DNA of 58,049 nucleotides from Myxococcales bacterium (GCA_016703425.1 JADJCA010000011.1:1-58049); one strand, 5' to 3'. Shown: positions 1 through 14,206, numbered from the stretch's first letter. Notes: generated by a model from the sequence alone, not told the origin. Numbers and translations: made by a program.

Positions 1-236
1 ACGTTCTTGTTGCCGAAGAGCATGAGCCCCGCCACGAGCTGGCAGCCTCCGCCGAAGAGCAAGCTGAAGACGGCCGCCGTCTTGAGCGCCGCCGTGAAGT
101 GTGCCGGCGCGACCCAACCAGCGAAGGCGATGGGCAGGAGCGCCTCCGCAAGCGATCGCGAGGCCGAGCAGACCGAGCGGAGTCGGGTTGCCAAAACGCC
201 TTGAGTGGGCGGAACGATGTCGATGCGCTGGACCAT
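1..236 (-). CDS. 5'-partial CDS (N-terminus in window, body continues past window start). Predicted membrane protein, possibly a transporter.
   Basis: Reverse-complement translation from the ATG whose complement lies at 236..234 gives MVQRIDIVPPTQGVLATRLRSVCS...LLPIAFAGWVAPAHFTAALKTAAVFSLLFGGGCQLVAGLMLFGNKN. This is hydrophobic and helix-like. It is divergent from the ABC-F gene. It is not in the ORF track because no stop falls inside the window. Confidence 0.35.
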   Translation of the reverse strand, partial: MVQRIDIVPPTQGVLATRLRSVCSASRSLAEALLPIAFAGWVAPAHFTAALKTAAVFSLLFGGGCQLVAGLMLFGNKN

Positions 237-349
237 GGCAAAAGGGGAATCGGCGAGGGGCGCGGCGTCAAGGCTCTCATGTTGCAGCGCAACAACTACC
301 GCCCGTTTCGCGCCTTCCAGCTCGCGCAATCTCTGAGCGCCGCACTAAG

Positions 350-2270
350 GTGCGCGCCGTGCCGGTTCTTTCTGCCCGCGACGTCGAGAAGTTCTACGGC
401 GCGCGAACCGTCCTCAAGTCCGTGACGTTCACGCTTCGGAGCGGCGAGCGCGTTGGGCTCTATTGGCAGAAACGGCACCGGCAAGTCGACGCTCATCGCA
501 TCCTCGCGGGCCTCGAGCCGCCCGATCGTGGCGAAATCGCCGTGCGTCGTGGCGCCAGCGTCGGCCTCTTGGAGCAAGTGCCGGAGCTTACCGCCGGCGA
601 CGCCGCGCCGGATCGTCGCCGAAGGCCTCGCCGCCTGGGCGAAGGTCCGCGCCGCTTACCGAGGTCACGCGCCAAGCTCGAGGGCGCCACCGGCGATCAC
701 GACGCTCCTCGCCGAGCAAGCGAAGTGGGCCACGAGATCGAAGGCCTCGGCGGCTGGGAGCGCGAGCACGAGGTCGAGGCGGTCTTGGGCAACCTCGGCG
801 TCACCAAGACATCGACCGCGACATCGCGAGCATGAGCGGCGGTGAGCGGAGGCGCGTGGCCCTGGCGCGGCTCCTCGTGGCCTCACCGGATCTCGCCATC
901 CTCGACGAGCCGACCAACCACCTCGACGTCGAGACCATCGACTGGCTCGAGGAGCACCTCGAGAAGCGCACCGAGGCGCGGTCTTGCTCGTGACCCACGA
1001 TCGGTATCTCCTCGATCGCGTCTGCTCGCGAACGCTCGAAATCAACGACGGGACGGTCACCGCGTACGACGGCGGCTACGAGACCTTCCCACGCGAGGTG
1101 GTGAGCGCATGGCGCTCGAGGAGCGCACCGAGGCGAACCGGCAGAATTTCCTTCGTCGTGAGCTCGAGTGGCTCGCGCGGCAGCCCAAAGCGCGAACCAC
1201 GAAGCAGAAGGCGCGCATCGAGCGGGCCGAGACGGCGAAGGCCGCGGTACTCGCAAGAAGGACGGAGAGCGTTCAGCTCGCCATCGAAGAGGCCCGCAGC
1301 GGCAAGACGGTCCTCGAACTCCACGGCTTCGGCCTCGACATCGGCGGCCAACGCCTCATCGAGTCGCTGGACCTCTTCCTCACGGAAGGCGAGCGCGTCG
1401 CCATCGTCGGGCGCAACGGCACGGGAAAGACGAGCCTCCTCCGCGCCGTCGTCGGCGAGCTCGCCGCCACGCGCGGCCGGTTGGTGCAGGGCGCCAACAC
1501 CAAGGTCGCCTACTTCGACCAAGAGCGAACCGGCCTCGACCTCGACAAAACCGTCTTTGAAAACGTGAGCGAAGGCGGTGCCGTCGAGATCGGCGGCGTC
1601 AGGCTCGAGCCCCGCGCCTACCTCGAGCGTTTCCTCTTCGACGGCCACGCGCAGCGGCAAAAGGTCGCGTCGCTCTCCGGCGGCGAGCGCGCGAGCCGCT
1701 TTGGCGAAGACGCTGCAAGGCAAGACGAACCTGGTGCTCTTGGACGAGCCGACCAACGATCTCGACGTCGACACGCTGGCCGCGCTCGAGGAGATGCTCG
1801 TGAGCTTCGGCGGCTCGGCCATCGTCGTCACCCACGATCGCTTCTTCCTCGATCGCATCGCGACCTCGCTCCTCGTCTTCGAGGGCGATGGCAAGGTCAC
1901 GCGGTACCCGGGCAACTACGAGACGTACCGGCGCCTCAAGAAGGAGCAGGCGGCCGAGGGCGAACGCGACGCAAAGGCGGAAGCCAAGGCGAGCGTGGCG
2001 CCGAAGGCCTCGGCCAAGGCCGACGCCCCGGAGGCGAAGGCCGCGAAGAGCAAGCTCTCTTACAAGGAGCGAAGCGAGCTCGAAACCCTTCCGGCGCGCA
2101 TCGAGACCGAGGAGCGCGAGATGGGCGCTCTCGAAACGACGCTGTCCGATCCGAACCTCTACAAGGAAGGGCCCGAGCGCCTTCGCGAGCTCACGGCCTC
2201 GCTAGAGGCGAAGAAGAAGCTCGTGGCCGAGCTCTACGTGCGATGGGAAGCCCTCGAAGCGAAGGGCTGA
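350..2270 (+). pseudogene. ABC-F family ATPase (Uup/EttA-like, two ABC cassettes plus C-terminal coiled-coil arm) disrupted by multiple frameshifts
   Basis: Two Walker A motifs ([10 protein letters not shown] near 470 and [13 protein letters not shown] near 1400), two signature motifs ([21 protein letters not shown]) and two Walker B/D-loops ([20 protein letters not shown]) appear across frames 101..835, 453..845, 463..993, 984..1568, 842..2422 and 1578..2270. The reading frame switches at least six times (about 463, 497, 600, 840, 990, 1110, 1690). A GTG at 350 is preceded by an AAGG Shine-Dalgarno-like sequence. The stop is TGA at 2268. Confidence 0.8.
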
Positions 2271-2301
2271 GCAGGTTCCCCTCGAGGATCGGCCCCGTGC
2301 G

Positions 2302-3105
2302 TCAGGGCATCGCTGCAATGATGGGGCGCGCGTCGAGCTTCATCACGCCGTCTTCGCTAAACGATTGGTCGAGGGGAAAGACACTGCTCACGACTCCGCG
2401 CGAGTCCGACGGGTTGCTTTGATTCACAAAGACGTCGATGTAGTGCCACGTGTCGCCCATTCGTGTGAAGGCAACGGACACCGTTGCCGAGCCCGTCGGT
2501 TTCGTAAGGGACGAATCAACCGTCTGGTCCAGCTTCAGCGCAGAGATGAGCGCTGATGGGCGTGGGCCGAGGTCCTTCACCTGTTCACGCGACAGTTCGG
2601 TCAGCACGACGCCGCCGAAGGGCGCCACCACGTCACCCCAAGTACGGGGCTCCGCCGCAACACTCGCGACGACGGACTCGTCGACAGCGACGTCGACCTG
2701 ACCGATGACGTAACGAGCAACGGTCTTCCCCTGCGCGGTGCGCCGGGGCTGCCCAATAGACTTGAGCACACCTCTGCCGCATCGGAACGTGAGTTGGGCG
2801 ATGTGGCTTATGTCCGGACCGTCGAAGTTGATCGACTTGCTTTCGGCCGCGCAGGCGGGAGCCGGGCCGGTCGCGATTTGAATGGCGCCGAAGAGCTTCT
2901 TCAGCTTTCGGTCGAGTCCCACACCGACGGCATCGGAGCCGGGTGTCGATACGGTCGCCCCCGCAGCGGTGCCGAGCGCCTTCTGCAGTTCGGCGTTCGC
3001 CGCACTCACCTGCAGCTCGCCTTGATCGGTCTCCGAGGCATCCTCCGTCGGCCCTGAGGAACACGCCGCCAAGAGCCCGACACACACAACCATGAGCTTC
3101 TTCAT
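2302..3105 (-). CDS. lipoprotein, function unknown
   Basis: ORF 2302..3192 has an internal Met at 3105 starting MKKLMVVCVGLLAACSSG, a signal peptide with an LAAC lipobox. The mature protein is Ser/Thr/Gly-rich with no motif I recognise. Confidence 0.55.
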   Translation of the reverse strand: MKKLMVVCVGLLAACSSGPTEDASETDQGELQVSAANAELQKALGTAAGATVSTPGSDAVGVGLDRKLKKLFGAIQIATGPAPACAAESKSINFDGPDISHIAQLTFRCGRGVLKSIGQPRRTAQGKTVARYVIGQVDVAVDESVVASVAAEPRTWGDVVAPFGGVVLTELSREQVKDLGPRPSALISALKLDQTVDSSLTKPTGSATVSVAFTRMGDTWHYIDVFVNQSNPSDSRGVVSSVFPLDQSFSEDGVMKLDARPIIAAMP

Positions 3106-3385
3106 GACCGACGCGTTCAGCAAGCGCGGTGCCGCAGGCCCACGTGCCTCGTCTCGCGGAGTTGCCTTCCCGCCTCGCAGCGCGATGCACACTCCGCGAT
3201 CTCACGCTGAGGGTCGGCGCTCTATTCGCGCACCCTATCGTGCCGAATTCACGCAAGAAACTTCCCCTCTCGATGCAGCTGGTCGGCGGGCCGGGAACGA
3301 TTTCGGCGAGCCGTGGCGCGCCTCGGCGGCGCACGCTGCCACGATGCTTGACGAGCGTTCCCCGAGCCCGTGCCGCCAAAGGGCG

Positions 3386-3679
3386 CGTCAAGCCTCGTCG
3401 TAAAATGCGCGGATCTCGGCCTCGTACTTCTTGTAGATGACCTTGCGCTTGATCTTCATCGTCGGCGTGAAGCTCGCCCGTCTCGACGCTCAGCTCTGCG
3501 GGAGGATCTTGATCTTCTTGATGGCCTGCACGCGCGCGAGGTCGCGATTCACCGCGTTGATCTCGCCCTGTAGCCAGCGGTGGAGCTTCTCGCACTTCGC
3601 CGCTTCGGGGAGCGTCTTGGCGTCGGAGCCGGCCCGCGAGCGAGCCTTTTTGAGCTTCGTAAGATCGATGGTGAGGAGC
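3386..3679 (-). pseudogene. diverged copy of the fadD 3' end (C-terminal ~98 codons), matching 6581..6874
   Basis: Direct nucleotide comparison: 3386..3679 aligns with 6581..6874 at roughly 90–95% identity, with substitutions and 1-nt indels. Example: gtgaagctcgcccg here versus gtgagctcacccg in the original. The fadD stop complement tca is kept at 3388..3390. The translated fragment is ORF 3490..3702 (-), ...TIDLTKLKKARSRAGSDAKTLPEAAKCEKLHRWLQGEINAVNRDLARVQAIKKIKILP. Confidence 0.8.
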
Positions 3680-4057
3680 AAGGTCACGCGGTACCCGGGC
3701 AACTACGAGACGTACCGGCGCCTCAAGAAGGAGCAGGCGGCCGAGGGCGAACGCGACGCAAAGGCGGAAGCCAAGGCGAGCGTGGCGCCGAAGGCCTCGG
3801 CCAAGGCCGACGCCCCGGGAGGCGAAGGCCGCGAAGAGCAAGCTCTCTTACAAGGAGCGAAGCGAGCTCGAAACCGCTTCCGGCGCGCATCGAGACCGAG
3901 GAGCGCGAGATGGCGCTCTCGAAACGACGCTGTCCGATCCGAACCTCTACAAGGAAGGGCCCGAGCGCCTCCGCGAGCTCACGGCCTCGCTAGAGGCGAA
4001 GAAGAAGCTCGTGGCCGAACTCTACGTGCGCTGGGAAGCGCTCGAGGCGAAGGGCTG
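3680..4057 (+). pseudogene. diverged copy of the ABC-F 3' end (C-terminal ~125 codons), matching 1893..2270
   Basis: 3680..4057 aligns with 1893..2270 (VTRYPGNYETYRRLKKEQAAEGERDAKAEAKASVAPKASAKADAP...LVAELYVRWEALEAKG, stop TGA at 4055..4057). It differs by several substitutions and by indels in G/C homopolymers. The join to the fadD fragment is at gaggagc|aaggtcac, a microhomology. Confidence 0.8.
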
Positions 4058-4099
4058 ACGTGCCGGGGTTGACGTGCCGGGGTTGACGCGCCGGGGCTG
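4058..4099. repeat. 14-bp tandem repeat x3 (cgtgccggggttga / cgtgccggggttga / cgcgccggggctga) directly after the copied ABC-F stop codon
   Basis: Read directly. The unit resembles the end of the ABC-F gene (gaagggctga), so the repeat looks like slippage at the copied gene end. Confidence 0.8.
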
Positions 4100-4290
4100 A
4101 CGCGACGATGCAGAAGGACTTGGCCCGGGAATTCGCTGGCGCTGGCGACTTCGCAGGTGGTGGCGGTGGCTGTGGCCCGCTCGACGACTGTATGGTAGTC
4201 GGGTGCTGATGTGACGGAGCGGTACTTCGCCGGGCAAGTGGAGCGCCGGGTCGACCGGCCTGCCGCTACCAACCGCGGAGCTCTACCTCT

Positions 4291-5821
4291 GTGCCGGCGC
4301 CATCGACGACCTCGCTCCAGCCCGATGTACCGTTGCTGCAACGGCGCCTTCGGACCCTGTTCTGGACCTTCGCGACCTTCTCGTGGATTGCCGTCCTCGC
4401 GCACGCCGTTGTCGGCATGGCAGCGCCGGAGGTGGCCATTCCATTCGCGCGAATGTTCTTCCTGTCGAGCGTCTGCGTAAGTACCGGCGCCGCCGTGCTC
4501 CTACGCCGGCCACGCCCGTGACGACGGTCAACGCGCTCGACCTGGGAGTGACGCTGGTCGTCAGCGGCTGGGTGGCGGCGATGATGCTCTACCCGTTCGC
4601 GCGCAACGATGAGCTCTATCTGGCCTTGGCAGCCAACGGATTCTTCGCCATCGCGCGTTCGTTCTTCTTGCCCGCCTCTCCGCGGCGCACCGCCGCCCTG
4701 GCGACGCTCGGCGCCGTACCGCCGTTGGTGGCAACCCTGTACATCGCGGCCAACGACGCCGGGCGCTTGACGTTGCCGCGGGCGCCTTTCGTGGTGAACG
4801 TCGCGTTTGCGCTCCTCGTACCGGTCGTCCTCGCTTGGGTCGGCGCCACCGTCATCGCGGGGCTGTTCGCCGAGGTCCGCGCCGCGCGCCGCCTGGGGCA
4901 ATACACGCTCGATGGAGAAAAACAGGAGGGCGGCATGGGGGTCGTCCATCGGGCGCACCACGCGATGCGGCGGCCACGGCGGTCAAGTTGCTACCGGCGG
5001 AGAAGAGCAGCGAGGCCGCAGTGGCTGGCTTCGAGCGCGAAGTCCAGCTGACGGCGCAGCTGACGGGCCCTCACGTCGTCGCCATTTTCGACTACGGGCG
5101 CTCGGACGACGGCACGTTCTATTATGCGATGGAGTATCTCGATGGCCTCGACCTCGAGCGGCTGGTGGTCGGCTGGGGCCCGCAACCGCCGGCTCGCGTA
5201 GCTGGCATCTTGGCTCAAGTATGCGATGCCCTCGCGGAGGCGCACGCTCGCGGATTGGTCCATCGCGACATCAAGCCGGCGAACATCCTCTTGTGTGAGC
5301 GTGGAACGCGGTGCGATGTGGCGAAGGTTGTCGACTTCGGGCTCGTGCGGCACGTGGCCGCAGAGGATGGCGTCGTGGCCGGCACGCCGGGTTTTTTGGC
5401 GCCCGAGGCGCTTGCGGGGCCCAGCGAGCTCTCCGTCAGCGTCGATCTCTACGCCGTCGGCGCCGTGGCGTACTTTCTCCTCGCGGGGCGCTTGCCCTTC
5501 GAAGGCGACACAGCCGCCAAGCTCATCGAGGCTCAGCTACGCGAGCGTGCGCCGACGCTCTCGTCGCGTGGAATCTCCATCGATGCCGACCTCGAAGCGC
5601 TCGTGCTCCGATGCCTTGAGCGGGAGCCGGCGTTGCGCCCCGCGTCCGCGGCGGAGCTCGGAGCGCAGCTGTCCTCGCTGGTGGGCAAGCTCAGTCCGTG
5701 GGGGGAGCCGGATGCGCGCCAGTGGTGGAGCAGCTTCAGGCGCCAGCGCGCCGAGCGCCAAGAGTCCGACGTCGCCGACACGGCTCCCGTAGCCTCGACG
5801 CTGCTGATCGCACATCGATAG
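4291..5821 (+). CDS. Hanks-type Ser/Thr protein kinase with an N-terminal polytopic membrane domain (at least 2 frameshifts)
   Basis: Frames 4291..4521 and 4383..5051 encode about 5–6 hydrophobic helices (LFWTFATFSWIAVLAHAVV, LGVTLVVSGWVAAMMLYPF, FVVNVAFALLVPVVLAWVGATVIAGLF). They end in the glycine-rich loop GEKQEGGMGVVHRAHH. Frame 4835..5821 continues with AVKLLPAEK, HRDIKPANILL, DFGLV, GTPGFLAPE and stops at 5819. Frameshifts lie near 4495 and 4965. Confidence 0.75.
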
Positions 5822-5967
5822 CCACGGGCCGCGCACAAGGCGTCCTCGCTCCGGAACAGCTTCACAGTGTCGTCCCGTAGGCCGACGGTTATGCGGTTGT
5901 GCGGCACGCGCGCGGTGACCAACGCGGCGCGCTCCGTGTCTTCGGCGAATCGTGGGGGCGAGCCGCC

Positions 5968-6535
5968 TCAGCCGGACCATTCACCGGCGCCATAAAAGAC
6001 GAAGCCAGGGATGCCGCTCGCTTCTAGCGCATCCTTGACCTTCTCATGGACGACGATGGCGCTGGCGTTCTCCGCCAGACGAAACAGCAAGGCGCCGCCG
6101 GTCTTCGACTCGTCAATCACGAGCGATTCGAAGCCGAGATCGCCCGGTGACCCCGATCCGCCACCCAAGTACCGAGAGGCCACTAGGTCTGCGCAGGCCA
6201 CGAGCCCGACGATGTTGTAGGCCTTGTAGTCGCGGTATTCGGCGCCCGTGTCCGGGTTCTTGAGCACGGCGTCGAGGTATTGAATGTTGTCGACTCCGAC
6301 AACATTCCAGCGTTTTCGCCACATCGTCGCGCATCACCGGGATCGACTTCTCGTAGTACATGGGCTTGGGCTGGCCCTTGAACCGCGGGTTGAGCGTGTA
6401 GACGATGGGCGTTGGCACCGCCTCCGTGAGCGGGCGACCTTGGCGCCAGTTCCCCTCGATGCCGGGCCCGGTGGCGATCGGCATGATGGGGTGCCTGCCT
6501 TCGCCGACCATCACGTAATAGCTCACCGGGATCAC
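5968..6535 (-). CDS. polymorphic-toxin immunity-like protein (resembles Imm11/DUF1629), one frameshift
   Basis: The N-terminal part is in frame 6113..6535 (MIPVSYYVMVGEGRHPIMPIATGPGIEGNWRQGRPLTEAVPTPIVYTLNPRFKGQPKPMYYEKSIPV...). The C-terminal part is in frame 5968..6324 (...YLDAVLKNPDTGAEYRDYKAYNIVGLVACADLVASRYLGGGSGSPGDLGFESLVIDESKTGGALLFRLAENASAIVVHEKVKDALEASGIPGFVFYGAGEWSG). The tail pattern IDESK.GG.LFRL...VHEKVK..LE.SG..GF.F matches, from memory, the DUF1629/Imm11 family that is abundant in myxobacteria. The family name is unverified. Confidence 0.5.
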
Positions 6536-6582
6536 CCACCGCTCTCAGCGCTGCCCCTTGCCACGTCCACCAAGAGGCAGCG

Positions 6583-8367
6583 TCAAGCCTCGTCGTAAAA
6601 TGCGCGGATCTCGGCCTCGTACTTCTTGTAGATGACCTTGCGCTTGATCTTCATCGTCGGCGTGAGCTCACCCGTCTCGACGCTCAACTCGGCAGGAAGG
6701 ATCTTAATCTTCTTGATGGCCTGCACGCGCGCGAGGTCGCGATTCACCGCGTCGACCTCGCCCTGCAGCCAGCGGTGGAGCTTCTCGCACTTCGCCGCTT
6801 CGGGGAGCGTCTTGGCGTCGGAGCCGGCCCGCGAGCGAGCCTCCTCGAGCTTCGTAAGATCGATGGTGAGGAGCGCCGCGAGGTGCTTCTCGCGATCGCC
6901 GACGACGACGGCATGACCGACCACCGAGATGTCGCGGAGCTTTCCTTCGAGCACCTGCGGCGCGATGTTCTCGCCTCCGGCGGTGATGAGCAGATCCTTC
7001 TTTCGATCGGTGATCCGAAGGAAGCCCTCCTTGTCGAACTCCCCGATGTCGCCCGAATGAAGCCAGCCGTCGGCGTCGAGCGCCTCGGCGGTGGCCTCCG
7101 GGTTCTTGTAGTAGCCCTTGAAGACGTGGCGACCGCGCATGCAGATTTCGCCGTCTTCGGCGATCTTGGTCTCCGTGCCGGGAATGACCGTCCCCACGGA
7201 GCCGGTCTTGTAGCGATTGGGGAGCGACACCGTCGCGGGGCCCGTGCACTCGCTCATGCCGTAGACCTCCATGAGCGGAATGCCGAGGCTCAGGAAGAAC
7301 TCGAGGGTGCCCCGCGAGATGGGCGCCGCCGACGTGATGGCGAAGCGACACCGATCGAGGCCGAGCGCTACACGCACCTTCTTGAAGACGAGGGCGTTGG
7401 CCACCTCGTACAACATGGGGCGGGCCGTGCCGCCTTGATCGGCGTAACCGCCGGCCAAACCTTGCTTGCGCGCCCAGACCGCGATCTTCTTCTTGAGGCC
7501 CGTGTTCTTGGACCCCGCCTCGACCATCTTGGCCTGGATCTTCTCCCAGACGCGGGGCACGCCGAAGAAGATCGTGGGGTGCACCTCGCGGAGGTTTTCG
7601 CCGAGCTTTTCCATGCTCTCTGCGAAATACGTGCACCCTGCAGCCGCCATGGGCCCGTGGATGCTCACGACCTGCTCGGCGATGTGGCTGAGGGGCAAAT
7701 ACGAGAGGAACGTCTCCTCGGAGAAGTCGATGAGGGTCTTCACCGCCTCGGCCACGAAGGTGATGTTGTCGTGGCTGATCATCACCGCCTTCGGATCGCC
7801 CGTCGTGCCGGAGGTGTAGATGAGCGTGCAGACGTCATCGGGCTTTTGGCCGGCGATGCGCGCTTCGAGATCCGCTTCGGGTACGTCGCGGCCGAGCTCG
7901 AGCACCTGGTCGAAGGTGTAGACGCCCTCGCCTTCGACTTTGCCCTGCATGACGACGAACGCCTTGACCTTCGGCAGACGGTCTCTGACCGAGAGGAACT
8001 TGTTGAGCTGCGCCTGGTCCTCGACGACGACCACGGCCGAGTCGCTGTGGTCGGCGATGTATTGGCACTGATCGGGGGTGTTGGTCGTGTAGATGTTCGC
8101 CGGGAAGCCGCCGGCGTAGATCGCCGCCAGATCGGCCACGACCCACGCGACGCAGTTGAAACCGATGATAGAGACGCCCTGCTTCGGCTCGAGGCCGAGC
8201 TTCATGAAGCCGCGCGCGCAGAGCCGGACCTTGTCGCGGTAGTCCTTCCACGAGAGCGTTTGGTAGGTGCCGCCGACCTTGTGGCCGAGCGCTGGCCTCG
8301 AGGCGTGACGCGACGCCACAGACTCCATCACCTCCATCACCGTTCGCTTGTTCACGTTCGCCTCCAC
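6583..8367 (-). CDS. fadD: long-chain fatty-acid--CoA ligase (AMP-binding/ANL superfamily)
   Basis: 594-aa intact ORF. AMP-binding motif YTSGTTGDPKAVMISHDN, YGMSECTG, the GWLHSGDIGEFDKEGFLRITDRKKDLL linker, and the C-terminal ...IKRKVIYKKYEAEIRAFYDEA typical of FadD/FACS enzymes. Confidence 0.9.
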   Translation of the reverse strand: MEANVNKRTVMEVMESVASRHASRPALGHKVGGTYQTLSWKDYRDKVRLCARGFMKLGLEPKQGVSIIGFNCVAWVVADLAAIYAGGFPANIYTTNTPDQCQYIADHSDSAVVVVEDQAQLNKFLSVRDRLPKVKAFVVMQGKVEGEGVYTFDQVLELGRDVPEADLEARIAGQKPDDVCTLIYTSGTTGDPKAVMISHDNITFVAEAVKTLIDFSEETFLSYLPLSHIAEQVVSIHGPMAAAGCTYFAESMEKLGENLREVHPTIFFGVPRVWEKIQAKMVEAGSKNTGLKKKIAVWARKQGLAGGYADQGGTARPMLYEVANALVFKKVRVALGLDRCRFAITSAAPISRGTLEFFLSLGIPLMEVYGMSECTGPATVSLPNRYKTGSVGTVIPGTETKIAEDGEICMRGRHVFKGYYKNPEATAEALDADGWLHSGDIGEFDKEGFLRITDRKKDLLITAGGENIAPQVLEGKLRDISVVGHAVVVGDREKHLAALLTIDLTKLEEARSRAGSDAKTLPEAAKCEKLHRWLQGEVDAVNRDLARVQAIKKIKILPAELSVETGELTPTMKIKRKVIYKKYEAEIRAFYDEA

Positions 8368-8456
8368 TCCCGTTCCCGTTCGATCGCGCCGCGAAGGCGG
8401 CAGCGGATTGTCTCTATTGCTGGCGGGAGCGCAAGGGGCGCGCCGCCGAGCCTTCG

Positions 8457-9299
8457 TCAGCCGCGCCGCATCTTCGCGGCCATCTGCTCGCCCAGCTGAG
8501 CCGCGCGGAGGCTGGCCGTTTCAACGGCGTCGATGAGCGTCTTGCGTAGCGCTCCCGATTCGAGCGTGTGAAGGCCTGCGATGGCCGTCCCGCCGGGGCT
8601 CGTCACTTGGTCCTTCAGCCGCCCGGGATGTTCGCCGGTCTCGAGCAAGAGCTTGGCCGAGCCGTAGACGGTCTGCGCCGCGAGCATGAGCGACGTGTCG
8701 CGGTGAAGGCCCATCTTGACGCCGCCGTCGGCGAGCGCCTCGATGATGAGCATGACGTAGGCGGGGCCCGAGCCCGAGAGACCGGTGACGGCGTCGAGAA
8801 GCACCTCGTCCAGGATCGCTGTCTTTCCCACCGCGGCGAAGAGCTGACTGGCCGTGGTCATGTCGGAATCGGTGGCGTGCGTCCCTGCCGAGAGGGCCGT
8901 GGCCCCCGCGAGGACGATGGCCGGCGTGTTAGGCATGGCGCGCACGACATGCACGCCGTCGGCGAGCCGCGACTCGAGCGACTCAATGGGAACGCCCGCT
9001 GCGACGGACACCACGAGGGTCTTGGTGGAGACGTCTTTGCCAATGGCGAGGAGCGCCTTGTCGACGACCTGCGGTTTGACGGCGATCACGAGCACGTCGA
9101 CGGACTTCGCCAGCTCGTGGTTGTCGGTGGTGACGCCAACGCCGTGGGCGCTCGCGAGCGCATCGAGACGCTCGCGCTTCACGTCGCTGACGACGATGTG
9201 CTCAGGGCCGACGAGCTTCGATTGAAGGAGGCCCTTCACGAGCGCCGCGGCCATGTTGCCACCACCCAAAAACCCGATCGTCTTCGGCCAGCCCTGCAT
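8457..9299 (-). CDS. proC: pyrroline-5-carboxylate reductase
   Basis: 280 aa. N-terminal Rossmann motif IGFLGGGNMAAALVKGL, then ...VRAMPNTPA... and ...GLSGSGPAY..., which are ProC hallmarks. Confidence 0.9.
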   Translation of the reverse strand: MQGWPKTIGFLGGGNMAAALVKGLLQSKLVGPEHIVVSDVKRERLDALASAHGVGVTTDNHELAKSVDVLVIAVKPQVVDKALLAIGKDVSTKTLVVSVAAGVPIESLESRLADGVHVVRAMPNTPAIVLAGATALSAGTHATDSDMTTASQLFAAVGKTAILDEVLLDAVTGLSGSGPAYVMLIIEALADGGVKMGLHRDTSLMLAAQTVYGSAKLLLETGEHPGRLKDQVTSPGGTAIAGLHTLESGALRKTLIDAVETASLRAAQLGEQMAAKMRRG

Positions 9300-9368
9300 A
9301 ACGCGCGAGTCTACTCCCCGGCGTGCCGAGAAGTTGGCCGAATCGGCCCGTTTTGCGAGGGGTAGAGG

Positions 9369-9884
9369 ATGCGCAGCCTCGCACTTCTCTTGGGCCTCTT
9401 GGCCGGTTGCAGCGCCTTTCCGGGTCTCGGCTTGGGCACCGGCGGTGGCGATGCCGGCGGGGGCTCCAGCGCCGCGGGCACTTCGGCCGGCGACGGTGGC
9501 ACCGGCACAAAGGGGGTCGACTGCATCGTGGAGCCGGAGAGCGGCGCCACGTTGTGCACGGCGGTCTCAACCTGCCCGTCTTTGGCCGTAGACCACGACA
9601 TCTACCCGCATTGCGGCTTTCGACCTGGCAGCCCCCGACTCGAGCTCGCCTGCGCGTGCGCCGGCGCCGTGTGCCCGCTAGGCACCGCCGACACCTGCGA
9701 GCAGGCCAAGAAGCTCTTGAGCGCGCAGAGCGAGTCGCAAGTCTGCGCGCAGGTGGCCGAGGATCGCTGCACCACCAAGTCGGCGGCCCCCACCACGTCG
9801 CCGTCGGCGACCTCCACATGCGACAAAGCCTGCGCCGGCGAGTGTGGTGGCGCCCCCGGCTGCCTCAAGCTCTGCGGCTGCTGA
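9369..9884 (+). CDS. Cys-rich lipoprotein, function unknown
   Basis: MRSLALLLGLLAGCSAF (LAGC lipobox), a Gly-rich linker and a Cys-rich C-terminus (CTAVSTCPS, CACAGAVCPLGTADTCEQ, CDKACAGECGGAPGCLKLCGC). It is divergent from proC with a 70-bp gap. Confidence 0.6.
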   Translation: MRSLALLLGLLAGCSAFPGLGLGTGGGDAGGGSSAAGTSAGDGGTGTKGVDCIVEPESGATLCTAVSTCPSLAVDHDIYPHCGFRPGSPRLELACACAGAVCPLGTADTCEQAKKLLSAQSESQVCAQVAEDRCTTKSAAPTTSPSATSTCDKACAGECGGAPGCLKLCGC

Positions 9885-9932
9885 CGCGCATCCTTTGGCG
9901 CAGCGTGTTCGCGCGGGACAACCGTTCGCCTC

Positions 9933-12900
9933 TCAGCGAACGGTCTCGATGACGGAGACTTCACCCCCAACGCCGCCGCAGAAGAGCAGGCCTCGATCCG
10001 CAAACGCCATGGTCGACACGCCGTGCTCCAGGCGCACGCGTGCGCGCTCGTCGAGCTCCCGATCGAACACCGTGACGATCTGGCCGGCGGACACCGCTAC
10101 GCGCTCCGCGACTTCGTCGAAGGAGAGCGCGAGGGCGCTGCCGGGCCCGCGCACGGCGCGCTCGACGGCAAGCGGCGTCCCGCCGAGGCGCGCGATGTCA
10201 CCGTTCTTCAAGACCACGACGAGCGCCATGTCGACGCCGCCGGCGACGTGCGTCACCGGTGACGCCACGACGAGAGGCTTCGAAACGGATAGCGAGACTG
10301 CGTTGATGACCCAAATCTTGCGGCCGTGGACGCAAGCAAAGTGCGTGTCGTCGAGCGACGCGAGCAGGCTCCCCTTGGTCACGACCGCTCGAGGGAGCGA
10401 GATCCGGTTCGCGCGCCCCGCCGTCTCGACGACCGAGAAGAGCCCGTTGTCCGCGGCGACCCAGACGTGACTGCCGGCGCGGGCCATGCTGGAGACACCA
10501 CGCAGCGGGAGCGCGCGCCCCACGGCCGTGCCGCTCACGAGGTCGATGCGCGTGACGCCGCTTTGCCACGCCGCGAGCAGCGTTCGCCCCGTCGCGCCGA
10601 CGACGGCGCCCACGAGCCCGCCCTTTTCCGCCGTGGTCCTCCACCCGGCCACGATCTCCCGCGTCTCGGCGTCCCACTGCAGCACCATCGCGTCGGCACC
10701 GAAGGAGAACGCCCGCGCCCGCGCGGCGTCGGTCAACATCACGAGCACGCGTTCGGTGTGTTGTGCGATGGGCAGGGTGCTCGAGTGTCCCGTCTCCTCC
10801 CAAAGCTCGACGCGAACGCCGGCGCCCCCCGTCAGGGCGAGCGCCGACAAAGGATCGAGCACCAAGGCCGCGATGGGCCCTGACGCCCTCACCGTCTGAA
10901 CGATGGCTTTGGCCGCGACGTCGACGCGCAGGAGTCCCGGGCTCTTGCCACCCACCGCCACGAGCAACGTGGCGCCGTCCTTGTGCCATGCGACGCGGAC
11001 ACCTCCCGCGACGGCGACGCTTCCACGCGACGCGAGCGTTACGCCGTCGAGCCACTCGACCGCACGCGGCCGCAGGATCGCCACGAGATTGGGCTCACGA
11101 TGAAAGGCGAGGTCGAGGATCGGCGAGGGGCGCGCCGGCGCCTTGGCCTTGGCCTTGGGCCTGGATTTGGGCGACGCCGCGCAGACCGCACCGTCGCGCT
11201 CGTCGATCCAATAAACGCGCTCGCCGGCGAGGACGAGGATGAGCGGCCTGTCGGGATGGGCCACCATGCGGAGCACCGGACCCTCGAGCTTCCGCGAGAA
11301 CACGACGTCGCGACTTCCCTTTTGCAGGAGCCCGGCCCTCGTGCCCACGACGACATCGCCATCGCTCGCCACGACGATCGACGAGACGGCCTTCGCGCCG
11401 ATGAGGCGGATCGAGCCGGCGAGCTCTCCGCTGCGCGCATCAAAGAGCACGACGTAGCCATTTTCGCAGGCGACCGCCAGCCGATCGCCGGCGCGGTCGA
11501 ACGTCATGGCCGACGCGTTCTCGAGATCATCGCGACCGCCGATGGCAGTGCCGTCGGCGTCAAAGAGCGTCACCTTCGTCTCGCCGAGGGCCGCGAAGCG
11601 CGAGCCCGCGCGGTTGCCGGCGAGCTCGCGAACGGGCGGCCCGAAGACCCAAGGCCCCCCGCCGAGTCGTGCCGCAGGAAGCGTCGGGCGCGCCGCGCCG
11701 GGCGCCACGACCCGCGAACGAAGCGCCTCGCGCACGCGCTCCGAGGCGCCGTAGACGTCGACCCGCGCGATGTCGACGGCGCTGGCGCGCACCATGGCGT
11801 TTTCGTGATCGAAGAGCGAGATGAGAAACGCGTCGGCGCCGGGCGTGTGGAAGCGCGCCAGCGCCTCGAGCGCGTCGAAGGTCGCCTCCGAGCGATCGGC
11901 CACCGTGACCTCGGAGTAGCTCGGGAACGCGACCATCGTGCGCACGGCGGCGAGGGCGGGCACCTCGAGCTCGGCGCCGCACTCGGCGTCAGCGCCCTTG
12001 CGAATGGCGTTGTGGCGAAAGATGGCGTCGGGATCGCGCAGGGCGCCGACGAGGCCCCGCACGCCTTCGCGCCGGAAGAGCGCGTCGACGCGGGGACGGT
12101 CCAAGAAGTTCGGCTTGACGACGATCCCGACGCTCCCCAAGACGTTCGCCGCGGCGGTGCGCACCCGCGAGTGCTCAGCGTCGACGAAACGTCGCGCCGT
12201 ATGCAGGAGCTCGTCGGGCGGTGCGTGCACCGCCAAGAGGCGGAGCGCCGTCTCGTGGAGCTCCCGCGCCTCGAAGCGATTGGCCATGAAGACGCGGAGC
12301 GCGTGCCGCACGACGTCGAGATCGACGCTTCGTCCGAGCCGTGACCGCAACGCCTCGAGCATCAAGCGCGGATAGACGAGCTGGTCCTTCGTCCCGACGA
12401 GCCGCGCCGCGACGGCCTCGACGTGCGACGCGGACCCGCGATCGGCGATGCGAGCGAGCGCGTACATGGCCACGTTGCGATGACGCCCGTCGAGGAGGCG
12501 CAGGAGCGCGTGGGTCGCCTGCCCGTCGCCGAGCCAGCCGAGGCCGACGATGGCGCGCGCGATGACGCTGTCCATGTCGGGCGGCGGCTCGGTGACGAGC
12601 GAGAGGAGAACCGGCATGGCCCGCGGATCACCGATGCGCCCGAGGGCCAGGCACGCGTTGGCGACGATGCGACGATGTTCGGTTTGCTCGCGCTCCGCGG
12701 CGGGCATCGACGACGACGCGAGTTGGATCAACTCGGGAACCGCCGTGGCCGCTCCAAGGTGCCCCAAGGCGTCGATGACGGCGGCGAGCAGCTCGCCCGA
12801 CGCCCCGAGCCGACTCGTGAGCGCGGGCACGGCGCGCGCGTCGCCGAGACGCCCGAGCGCCAGCGCGAAGGGCGCGAAGTCCGCGTGCGCGACGAAATAC

Positions 12901-13172
12901 GCGGTGAATCGCGCGCCCGTGGCGCCGAGCGCCTCGACCGTCTCGTAGAGCTCCCGGCGAAAGACCTTTCCTTCGCGGCGGTACTGCTCCTCCTCGAGGA
13001 ACTTCAGCCGACTGCTGTCGATGGCGAGCGACGGGTCGCTGCGGCGGTAGACCGCGTAGAGCTCGCGCACTGTGGCTGGCTCGTCTACGAAGTCCCAAGC
13101 CAACGACGGGATGTCCCGCCCGACGTGTTGCTCCAGGAGCTCCTGGACGCGAGCGGCGACCGCCACGCTCAC
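9933..13172 (-). CDS. large HEAT-repeat (PBS-lyase type) plus beta-propeller repeat protein
   Basis: 1079-aa intact ORF. The N-terminal half has repeated LG.LG...AVP.L / ALG.IGDPRA.P.L units (HEAT/PBS-lyase-like). The C-terminal half has repeated short-strand motifs (VACENGYVVLFD, VASDGDVVVGTRAG, LVAVGGKSPGLL) consistent with WD40/PQQ-like propeller blades. Confidence 0.65.
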   Translation of the reverse strand: MSVAVAARVQELLEQHVGRDIPSLAWDFVDEPATVRELYAVYRRSDPSLAIDSSRLKFLEEEQYRREGKVFRRELYETVEALGATGARFTAYFVAHADFAPFALALGRLGDARAVPALTSRLGASGELLAAVIDALGHLGAATAVPELIQLASSSMPAAEREQTEHRRIVANACLALGRIGDPRAMPVLLSLVTEPPPDMDSVIARAIVGLGWLGDGQATHALLRLLDGRHRNVAMYALARIADRGSASHVEAVAARLVGTKDQLVYPRLMLEALRSRLGRSVDLDVVRHALRVFMANRFEARELHETALRLLAVHAPPDELLHTARRFVDAEHSRVRTAAANVLGSVGIVVKPNFLDRPRVDALFRREGVRGLVGALRDPDAIFRHNAIRKGADAECGAELEVPALAAVRTMVAFPSYSEVTVADRSEATFDALEALARFHTPGADAFLISLFDHENAMVRASAVDIARVDVYGASERVREALRSRVVAPGAARPTLPAARLGGGPWVFGPPVRELAGNRAGSRFAALGETKVTLFDADGTAIGGRDDLENASAMTFDRAGDRLAVACENGYVVLFDARSGELAGSIRLIGAKAVSSIVVASDGDVVVGTRAGLLQKGSRDVVFSRKLEGPVLRMVAHPDRPLILVLAGERVYWIDERDGAVCAASPKSRPKAKAKAPARPSPILDLAFHREPNLVAILRPRAVEWLDGVTLASRGSVAVAGGVRVAWHKDGATLLVAVGGKSPGLLRVDVAAKAIVQTVRASGPIAALVLDPLSALALTGGAGVRVELWEETGHSSTLPIAQHTERVLVMLTDAARARAFSFGADAMVLQWDAETREIVAGWRTTAEKGGLVGAVVGATGRTLLAAWQSGVTRIDLVSGTAVGRALPLRGVSSMARAGSHVWVAADNGLFSVVETAGRANRISLPRAVVTKGSLLASLDDTHFACVHGRKIWVINAVSLSVSKPLVVASPVTHVAGGVDMALVVVLKNGDIARLGGTPLAVERAVRGPGSALALSFDEVAERVAVSAGQIVTVFDRELDERARVRLEHGVSTMAFADRGLLFCGGVGGEVSVIETVR

Positions 13173-13252
13173 GTCACGCCTCGCTGCACCGTGGCTCGCG
13201 CTCCGCGACGGCTGCGACAGGTCGCCGCTTCACGCTAGCCCGCGGCCTCAAG

Positions 13253-14206
13253 CTACACCAACGAAGCCAAACGAGCGCGTTGAGCGTCGCCGTGAGCCTT
13301 GAGCGACTCGAGAATGATGACGGCGGTCTCCTCGATGGCGCGCCCGGTCACGTCGATGACGGGCCATTCGGGGTGGGCCCGGAAGATCTCCCGCGCGTAG
13401 TCGAGCTCTTCTTTGACCTGATCGCGGAGGCCGTAGCTTGCGTCGACCGGCATGCCGAGCTGCTTGAGCCGGGCTTTTCGGATTTCGACGAGCTTGTCGA
13501 GCTCGATGGTCAGCCCAACGATCCGCGACTGCGGCGCTTCCTCGAGCTCCGGCGGCGTCGCGATGCCGAGCACCAGGGGCAGGTTGGCGACGCGCAGGCC
13601 GCGCTGCGCGAGGATGGTGGAGAGCGGCGTCTTCGACGTGCGGCTCACTCCCACGAGGACGATGTCCGCCTTCTTGAAGTTGCGCGGCTCCTTGCCGTCG
13701 TCGCTCTTGACGGTGAACTCCACGGCCTCGATGCGGCGGAAGTATTCCTCACTGAGCGGCATCATCCCGCTCGGCAGGTTGATGGGCTGCCGATCGAGGA
13801 ACGTCGAGAGCTTGCCGATGAGCGAGCCGATGAGGTCGAGCGCCTCGACGCGGAGCTCCTTGCTCGACACGTAGATGAACTCACGCAGCTCGGGGCTCAC
13901 CACGGTAAAGACCACGACGGCCCCGTCTTGTGCCGCTCGCTCAAGCAGCGGACGCGCCTGGTCGGGCGTGCGCACGCGGGTGTGCACGCGGAGCTGCGCA
14001 CCCGAGTGGGGAAACTGGAGCATCGCGGCGCGAACGACCCGCTCGGCGGTTTCACCGGTCGAGTCGCTGAGAACGTCAATCCACCTGAGGTCCGACACGC
14101 GGGCGAGTCTACCTGGCCCTCGCAGAACGCGCCCAAGATCATGGACCTCGGTCGATCCACAACGGGCGATCCAAAGAACGACGCGGGCTTTTGCCCACAT
14201 CGTCAT
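13253..14206 (-). CDS. ppsR: PEP synthetase regulatory protein (PSRP, kinase/pyrophosphorylase, DUF299)
   Basis: P-loop LVGVSRTSKTPLS, plus ...FTVVSPELREFI... and a C-terminal ...EIRKARL...YASLDQV-like region, characteristic of bifunctional PSRP. The start is set at MTMW (14206). A GTG start further in is possible. Confidence 0.75.
   Translation of the reverse strand: MTMWAKARVVLWIARCGSTEVHDLGRVLRGPGRLARVSDLRWIDVLSDSTGETAERVVRAAMLQFPHSGAQLRVHTRVRTPDQARPLLERAAQDGAVVVFTVVSPELREFIYVSSKELRVEALDLIGSLIGKLSTFLDRQPINLPSGMMPLSEEYFRRIEAVEFTVKSDDGKEPRNFKKADIVLVGVSRTSKTPLSTILAQRGLRVANLPLVLGIATPPELEEAPQSRIVGLTIELDKLVEIRKARLKQLGMPVDASYGLRDQVKEELDYAREIFRAHPEWPVIDVTGRAIEETAVIILESLKAHGDAQRARLASLV

Follow-up and report, generated by a model that had tools for sequence, protein, structure and literature searches.

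Joint of a small segmental duplication or circle as the probable origin of fused ABC-F and fadD gene ends at a variable cassette site of a Myxococcales metagenome-assembled genome

The window analysed here comprises 58,049 nt of a Myxococcales bacterium (GCA_016703425.1, JADJCA010000011.1:1-58049), and the locus in question is situated between two convergent genes. The first is an ABC-F gene on the plus strand (359..2270), the last 378 nt of which (1893-2270) represent copy A1 of a repeat. The second is a fadD-like AMP-binding gene on the minus strand (6583..8355), which is intact and encodes a protein of 590 aa with a Pfam AMP-binding domain; its product is identical to P0121 and to the NCBI entry MBK6694610.1, and its 3' end (6583-6874) represents repeat copy F2. 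This entry and MBK6694608.1, a kinase described below, are both located on a 496,200-bp contig of the Myxococcales bacterium metagenome-assembled genome (MAG). Directly after the true fadD stop codon, a terminator-like hairpin is found on the minus strand (6547..6582). It has no U tract and an RNA fold of -27.5 kcal/mol (z = -2.8), compared to z = -0.1 for the degenerate trailer of the partial fadD copy F1.

The interval between the two genes (2271-6582) harbors two cassettes, X (2271-3368) and Y (4059-6563), which have no mutual similarity. Cassette X contains an intact gene on the minus strand (2302..3105) for a predicted lipoprotein of 267 aa (MKKLMVVCVGLLAAC...). The X protein has no Pfam match and shows no similarity to the product of the 302-307-aa lipoprotein gene of the close relatives. 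Its homologs fall into a single cluster (P0244/P0245, 97%) and are encoded on the short-read contigs L087-L089, where they adjoin the ABC-F 3' end. These three short contigs come from other assemblies, at least one of which is labelled as wastewater metagenome; in L087, which belongs to a slightly different strain, X lies beside an uninterrupted ABC-F gene (window equivalent 1753-3246). Compared to all of L087-L089, the X gene of the window has an in-frame insertion of 15 nt (five codons) at 2699-2716 and four nearby substitutions.

Cassette Y begins with a gene for a Ser/Thr protein kinase on the plus strand (4264..5821; Pfam Pkinase, E = 1e-36). Homologs of this kinase have approximately 535 aa, and tblastn places the matching segments in three different frames, namely 4336-4503 in frame 1, 4524-4967 in frame 3 and 4976-5809 in frame 2. 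Hence, the frame shifts near 4503-4524 and near 4967-4976, and the NCBI annotation (CDS MBK6694608.1, 4988-5821) comprises the final 277 aa. A comparison with 5.8 billion proteins returned the source record itself (P0124; 100% identity) and, as the closest other protein, one with 59%. The lack of relatives above 59% points to rare foreign DNA. The second gene of cassette Y, on the minus strand (5968..6324, up to 6535 at its widest), encodes a fragment of an Imm11-like immunity protein (Pfam PF07791, E = 1.5e-8), which matches profile positions 87-192 of 194, i.e. the C-terminal part; the GC3 phase changes near 6300. It is an orphan immunity gene and possibly frameshifted. Neither the cassette region (2271-6582) nor its flanking genes showed toxin or secretion genes, and promoter and terminator predictions for the same interval were either negative or no better than chance.

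The two cassettes are separated by two partial gene copies. The initial annotation had described this patch as a mosaic pseudo-locus, in which a diverged copy of the fadD 3' end is fused to a diverged copy of the ABC-F 3' end. The fadD part, F1 (3354..3679, minus strand), contains the last 97 codons with the stop codon at 3388-3390 (TCA) and a trailer of about 35 nt. The copied fadD end with its stop, previously placed at 3386..3679, is thus real, with 3388-3679 repeating 6583-6874. The match as a whole extends over 3369-3679 and 6564-6874, and weak similarity continues to 3354/6547. In their coding part, F1 and F2 differ by 11 substitutions and two single-base indels (approximately 96% identity). 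The ABC-F part, A2 (3680..4058, plus strand), contains the last 125 codons and the stop codon at 4056-4058 (TGA); the claim of a copied ABC-F end with its stop therefore stands, and only its end has to be moved from 4057 to 4058. Positions 3678/3680-4058 match 1891/1893-2270 with five substitutions and three single-base indels, the latter at 3817, 3876 and 3912, and A1 and A2 are identical across the first 141 nt. Repeat segments of 300-380 nt with 93-97% identity are far above chance.

At the novel joint (3678..3681, assigned to neither strand), fadD codon -98 is fused to ABC-F codon -126. The non-homologous nature of this fusion was correctly recognized before, and the same joint is present in contig L089. 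The view that the locus is not an exact assembly duplication also holds, since the copies differ by substitutions and indels and the joint recurs in L089. However, the microhomology of 3-4 nt, which had been taken as a signature of illegitimate joining, shrinks to an exact overlap of 2 nt (GC, 3678-3679); such an overlap could be attained by chance in a genome with 67% G+C and is diagnostic of no mechanism. An ORF of 211 codons running over the joint (3437..4072, plus strand) does exist as reported, but it is not a meaningful chimeric ORF. We judge it to be a spurious shadow ORF, because its third codon positions fall on the wobble positions of the fadD fragment, to which it runs antisense, and because it is frameshifted within the ABC-F fragment; its single Pfam match, to ABC_tran_Xtn, is sub-threshold and covers the in-frame start of A2. 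In the assembled window, all units together follow the order and orientation A1-X-F1|A2-Y-F2, in which the fadD end (6874 equivalent) is joined to the ABC-F part (1893 equivalent). This is the signature of a head-to-tail duplication, i.e. the end of a unit is joined to its start and both flanks are kept. Both flanking genes are retained in full length, and F1 and A2 are, as far as their sequence tells, non-functional by-products.

Close relatives, which were recovered through a protein-cluster route, reveal the native state of the interval. Six contigs were obtained, L081-L084 and L086 with approximately 97% nucleotide identity and L085 (GCA_964269505.1) with 99.5%, the latter value being measured over window positions 6583-14000, i.e. 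from fadD onward; the whole range is 96.7-99.5% across fadD and the sequence beyond. A contig scan with fadD found relatives of at most 78% identity and none with ABC-F within 10 kb. The two contigs that extend over the entire interval, L081 and L085, have a co-directional lipoprotein gene for 302-307 aa after fadD and then a convergent intact ABC-F gene for 639-643 aa. The distance from stop to stop amounts to approximately 1.0 kb (2578-3590 in L081, 11774-12775 in L085), and the four shorter contigs agree as far as they cover the region. The short spacers in the native interval differ even between L081 and L085. Homology between the window and its relatives breaks exactly at the stop codons of ABC-F and fadD, which implies that the whole interval 2271-6582 has been replaced; cassette Y is absent from L081-L086.

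The comparison of synteny in relatives, proposed in the initial annotation, thus yields convergent ABC-F and fadD genes with a native lipoprotein gene between them, and fused gene ends in L089. It also uncovers what had been missed, namely that the interval 2271-6582 consists of swapped cassettes. Altogether, three unrelated cassettes occupy the space between the same two stop codons, N (the 302-307-aa lipoprotein), X (the 267-aa lipoprotein) and Y (the kinase and the Imm11-like protein), while the flanks are 97-99.5% identical. By this comparison the ABC-F/fadD interval is a local recombination hotspot, a site of fast cassette turnover.

Our favored and, in our assessment, probable explanation is that a 1787-bp segment (1893-3679) at this hypervariable cassette site was duplicated or circularized, that the patch is the novel joint so created, and that a homologous cassette exchange took place in addition. 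In a first step, illegitimate end-joining with the 2-nt overlap would have linked codon -98 of fadD with codon -126 of ABC-F. The product would have been a head-to-tail tandem duplication of the segment made up of ABC-F tail, X and fadD tail, or alternatively this segment in circular form. In a second step, homologous recombination in the conserved gene tails would have brought the foreign cassette Y beside X, resulting in the product ABC-F...A1-X-F1|A2-Y-F2...fadD after a minimum of two events. Three routes can be envisaged. The tandem duplication could have come first, with Y later replacing the distal X by allelic exchange, in which case L089 would represent the ancestor. Alternatively, a circle could have been integrated by a Campbell-type single crossover, or a linear donor anchored in fadD could have been inserted by homology-facilitated illegitimate recombination (HFIR). 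All three routes would yield the same product, and we infer the order of events and the route from that product. In any case, this is an ordinary recombination footprint and a further example of a familiar type of event, and no new element or mechanism has to be invoked.

The occurrence of the joint outside of the window is a key point for this explanation. Contig L089 (JAHZTJ010806649.1, GCA_020051655.1; 1685 nt) was separately deposited, though it may share the sample of the MAG. Its reverse complement reads from fadD (3615-3679) through the same joint into the ABC-F tail, continues across X and ends in the fadD tail at the equivalent of 3526. The ABC-F tail is of the A1 type without the indels of A2, and the fadD tail carries the F1-type allele. 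Within 110 nt around the joint, L089 and the window are identical except for C>T changes at 3648, 3649 and 3651; furthermore, L089 does not have the F1 indels at 3470 and 3500. The presence of the same joint in L089 means that it is not a chimeric-read artefact of the window's MAG but exists in nature, and the two indels and three C>T changes of F1 missing there are private mutations or consensus errors. Of the 1787 nt in the duplicated unit, L089 contains 1685, arranged as a cycle that passes through the joint. Such an arrangement would be compatible with an amplified array or a free circle of the unit in that sample, or simply with a cycle in the assembly graph. Likewise, the finding that X and not Y follows the joint in L089 fits the ancestor with the tandem duplication, but it could also reflect a cyclic de Bruijn path, and the Y side is not confirmed by L089. 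A search of JGI metagenome contigs with the 24-mer of the joint and with the X protein gave no match.

Several known systems resemble this arrangement. Tandem segmental duplications with RecA-independent joints, i.e. joints with short or no homology, are catalogued in amplification studies of E. coli and Salmonella (e.g. PMC1428787, PMC3411829). As in those duplications, the end of the unit in the window is joined head-to-tail to its start with a 2-nt overlap, the gene ends are truncated at the joint and the flanking genes are complete. Unlike them, the units have different interiors, X versus Y, and a second homologous exchange is needed; in the window X and Y are dissimilar, whereas L089 has ABC-F tail, X and fadD tail after the joint, possibly as a cyclic graph path. 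When a circle integrates by a single crossover, the homologous locus is duplicated over 109-950 bp; HFIR combines one homologous with one illegitimate end (PMC3240628). Campbell-type integration and HFIR (PMC3240628; de Vries and Wackernagel, 2002 and Prudhomme et al., 2002, as cited in PMC5361080) lead to the same combination of foreign DNA beside resident DNA with one illegitimate joint. The anchors in the window are partly duplicated over 311 and 379 nt, within the 109-950 bp given in PMC3240628; moreover, the anchor gene contains a tract of donor alleles and the inserted Y is absent from close relatives. In contrast to those cases, no transformation or conjugation route is known for this uncultured Myxococcota lineage. 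Finally, orphan immunity genes and C-terminal stubs at Rhs, CDI and T6SS loci form arrays by successive displacement, for which additive insertions of the HFIR type were proposed (PMC5361080). The window shares with them the variable cassettes downstream of conserved genes, the retained 3' stubs and the orphan Imm11-like gene; it differs in that the stubs derive from housekeeping ABC-F and acyl-CoA synthetase genes instead of a toxin gene, and in that there is one stub pair.

An assembly artefact could mimic such a structure. False haplotypic duplications are a familiar fault of long-read assemblies, in which two alleles of one locus appear one after the other together with parts of their flanks, while the local consensus quality is lowered. 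Applied to our case, the haplotypes ABC-F-X-fadD and ABC-F-Y-fadD would have been falsely concatenated, or a strain switch would have occurred in the shared ABC-F tail, during a long-read metagenome assembly with locally poor polishing. The source is indeed a MAG, and its accession range is presumably that of Nanopore activated-sludge MAGs. Public data contain several strains of this population with 94-99.5% identity, and each of the pairs F1/F2 and A1/A2 shows the pattern of two alleles. Moreover, the F1 indels are missing from L089 and cassette Y occurs in no other assembly. On the other hand, and unlike a false haplotypic duplication, the exact F|A joint recurs in the separately deposited L089 with a slightly different sequence, and a strain switch would have to fall within 290-380 nt of shared sequence, which we would regard as short for long-read overlap assemblers. 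We therefore consider an artefact unlikely, although the allele pattern and the local indel load speak for it.

The sequence quality of the window is extremely uneven. From 6583 on, the window has long intact ORFs and differs by 0.34-0.44% from L085, with three indels in 11.8 kb. In contrast, ABC-F and its upstream region show 22 indels relative to L085 in 2.27 kb (15 in the CDS and 7 upstream, between 119 and 1692), 20 of them within 119-1264. They include insertions as well as deletions of 1-3 nt, about half of them in short repeats or homopolymers. The gene that precedes ABC-F is affected at its 5' end. Altogether, the indel-rich stretch extends over 119-6300 and includes these 22 events, at least two in the kinase and five in F1/A2, whereas the other 52 kb are clean. 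Thus, either the assembly or the biology is locally wrong. In a six-frame reading of ABC-F, the Walker and ABC motifs are scattered across three frames. Compared with the intact 639-aa ABC-F of L085, the window gene is 97% identical and has 28 substitutions, 20 of them at codon position 3, besides the 15 CDS indels. The heavy indel load together with mostly synonymous substitutions suggests residual consensus errors rather than evolutionary decay. Hence, the ABC-F indels, the private indels of F1/A2 and the C>T changes are probably residual errors of the MAG consensus, and the ABC-F and Y kinase genes are probably falsely frameshifted in the record, which would make ABC-F a false pseudogene.

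The model implied by the initial annotation, in which local copies of both gene ends were joined non-homologously and then diverged by neutral decay, appears very improbable to us. It would account for the truncated and non-functional state of the copies, for the changes found exclusively in F1/A2 (five indels that break the frame and six C>T changes), and for the 14-bp repeat that abuts the copied stop codon. However, once each difference is polarised with close relatives, the copies turn out to show the allelic differences of two haplotypes. A2 shares with A1 the derived states of the window lineage versus L085, which indicates that the copy was made within this lineage. The differences are uneven and clustered beside Y, as all five substitutions between A1 and A2 are located in 3971-4046, i.e. 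in the last 88 of 378 nt adjoining Y (chance probability approximately 7e-4), and at two of these sites (2243 and 2258) both states segregate among the relatives as standing polymorphisms. Furthermore, six of the 11 differences between F1 and F2 form a cluster at 6670-6706, in which the derived, all-synonymous states occur in the intact gene copy F2, while F1 keeps the allele of the relatives. None of the 16 substitutions in F and A together affects codon position 2 and 11 affect position 3. Flanks that differ by 0.34-0.44% from L085 would leave too little time for neutral decay of 3-4%. Finally, L089 has the same joint but not five of the changes in F1 that would be attributed to decay, and the model leaves the difference between X and Y as well as the missing native gene unexplained. 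Allele polarisation thus largely refutes decay.

The duplication or circle followed by cassette exchange provides a better frame for the same differences. The 3' part of fadD in the window has 15 SNPs relative to L085 within about 410 nt (6586-6991, 3.7%) and none in the next 1100 nt, compared to a background of 0.34%. These SNPs are arranged in two clusters, 6670-6736 and 6916-6991, and are almost purely synonymous. The ~410 nt at the fadD 3' end and the last ~90 nt of A2 look like donor tracts that arrived with Y, and the SNP-dense fadD tract 6586-6991 was probably imported together with this cassette. The differences between the copies would then be mostly allelic, with F1 and A1 belonging to the X-linked haplotype and F2 and the A2 tail to the Y-linked one. 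Two other readings of the substitutions were rejected. The codon-position bias of A2 could be taken for import from a foreign ortholog; since A2 shares the derived states of the window lineage with A1, this reading gave way to one in which the states are linked to the X or Y haplotype. Deamination as the source of the G>A cluster in F2 was dismissed, because the second fadD cluster (6916-6991) is of mixed type and synonymous, which is typical of a recombined tract.

F1 contains a cluster of six C>T changes on the plus strand, which spans 94 nt (3558-3651) at a distance of 28-121 nt from the joint; all three that are covered by L089 are absent there. They represent either base-calling errors in pyrimidine runs or real strand-coordinated mutations. 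A more speculative side reading would be that they stem from real damage to single-stranded DNA during recombination.

We regard the insertion of a mobile element with the gene ends as carried or captured cargo (an IS, a transposon, an integron cassette or the remnant of a prophage) as hardly credible. In its favor, 4.3 kb of strain-specific DNA with an immunity-type gene are concentrated at one site. However, Pfam searches of the ORFs in 2271-6582 gave no transposase, integrase or recombinase domains, and the interval has no terminal inverted or direct repeats, no target-site duplication, no tRNA genes, no Rfam families and no similarity to plasmids or phages.

The probable joint of a small duplication or circle permits a more speculative extension. 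The 1787-bp unit might act as a recombinase-free, homology-armed vehicle for cassettes that cycles between a tandem and a circular form, an idea that we regard as improbable. If it were true, the cyclic L089 would be a trace of the 1787-bp unit, and single-crossover re-integration into co-occurring strains would permit the stacking and swapping of lipoprotein, kinase and immunity cassettes between the two stop codons.

More generally, a mosaic pseudo-locus of gene ends becomes readable as the joint of a small duplication or of an additive integration. Near-identical relatives can polarise each difference between such copies, and what appears to be decay consists mostly of linkage to cassette haplotypes plus likely consensus errors. 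The cassette site could be useful for strain tracking in this Myxococcota population, in which genomes are up to 99.5% identical in the flanks. Moreover, the probable false frameshifts in ABC-F and the kinase call for caution in the annotation of MAGs.

A minor feature adjoins the patch on the Y side. The 14-bp tandem repeat noticed after the copied stop codon is real; it begins within the final codons of A2 and extends over 4052..4102 on the plus strand (Tandem Repeats Finder: period 14, 3.6 copies, 91% matches). The motif was not found elsewhere in the form of a dispersed repeat, and the repeat has neither an unusual RNA fold nor an Rfam match. Its units at 4059-4072 and 4073-4086 are exactly identical and the third (4087-4100) has two mismatches, and slippage is a plausible origin.
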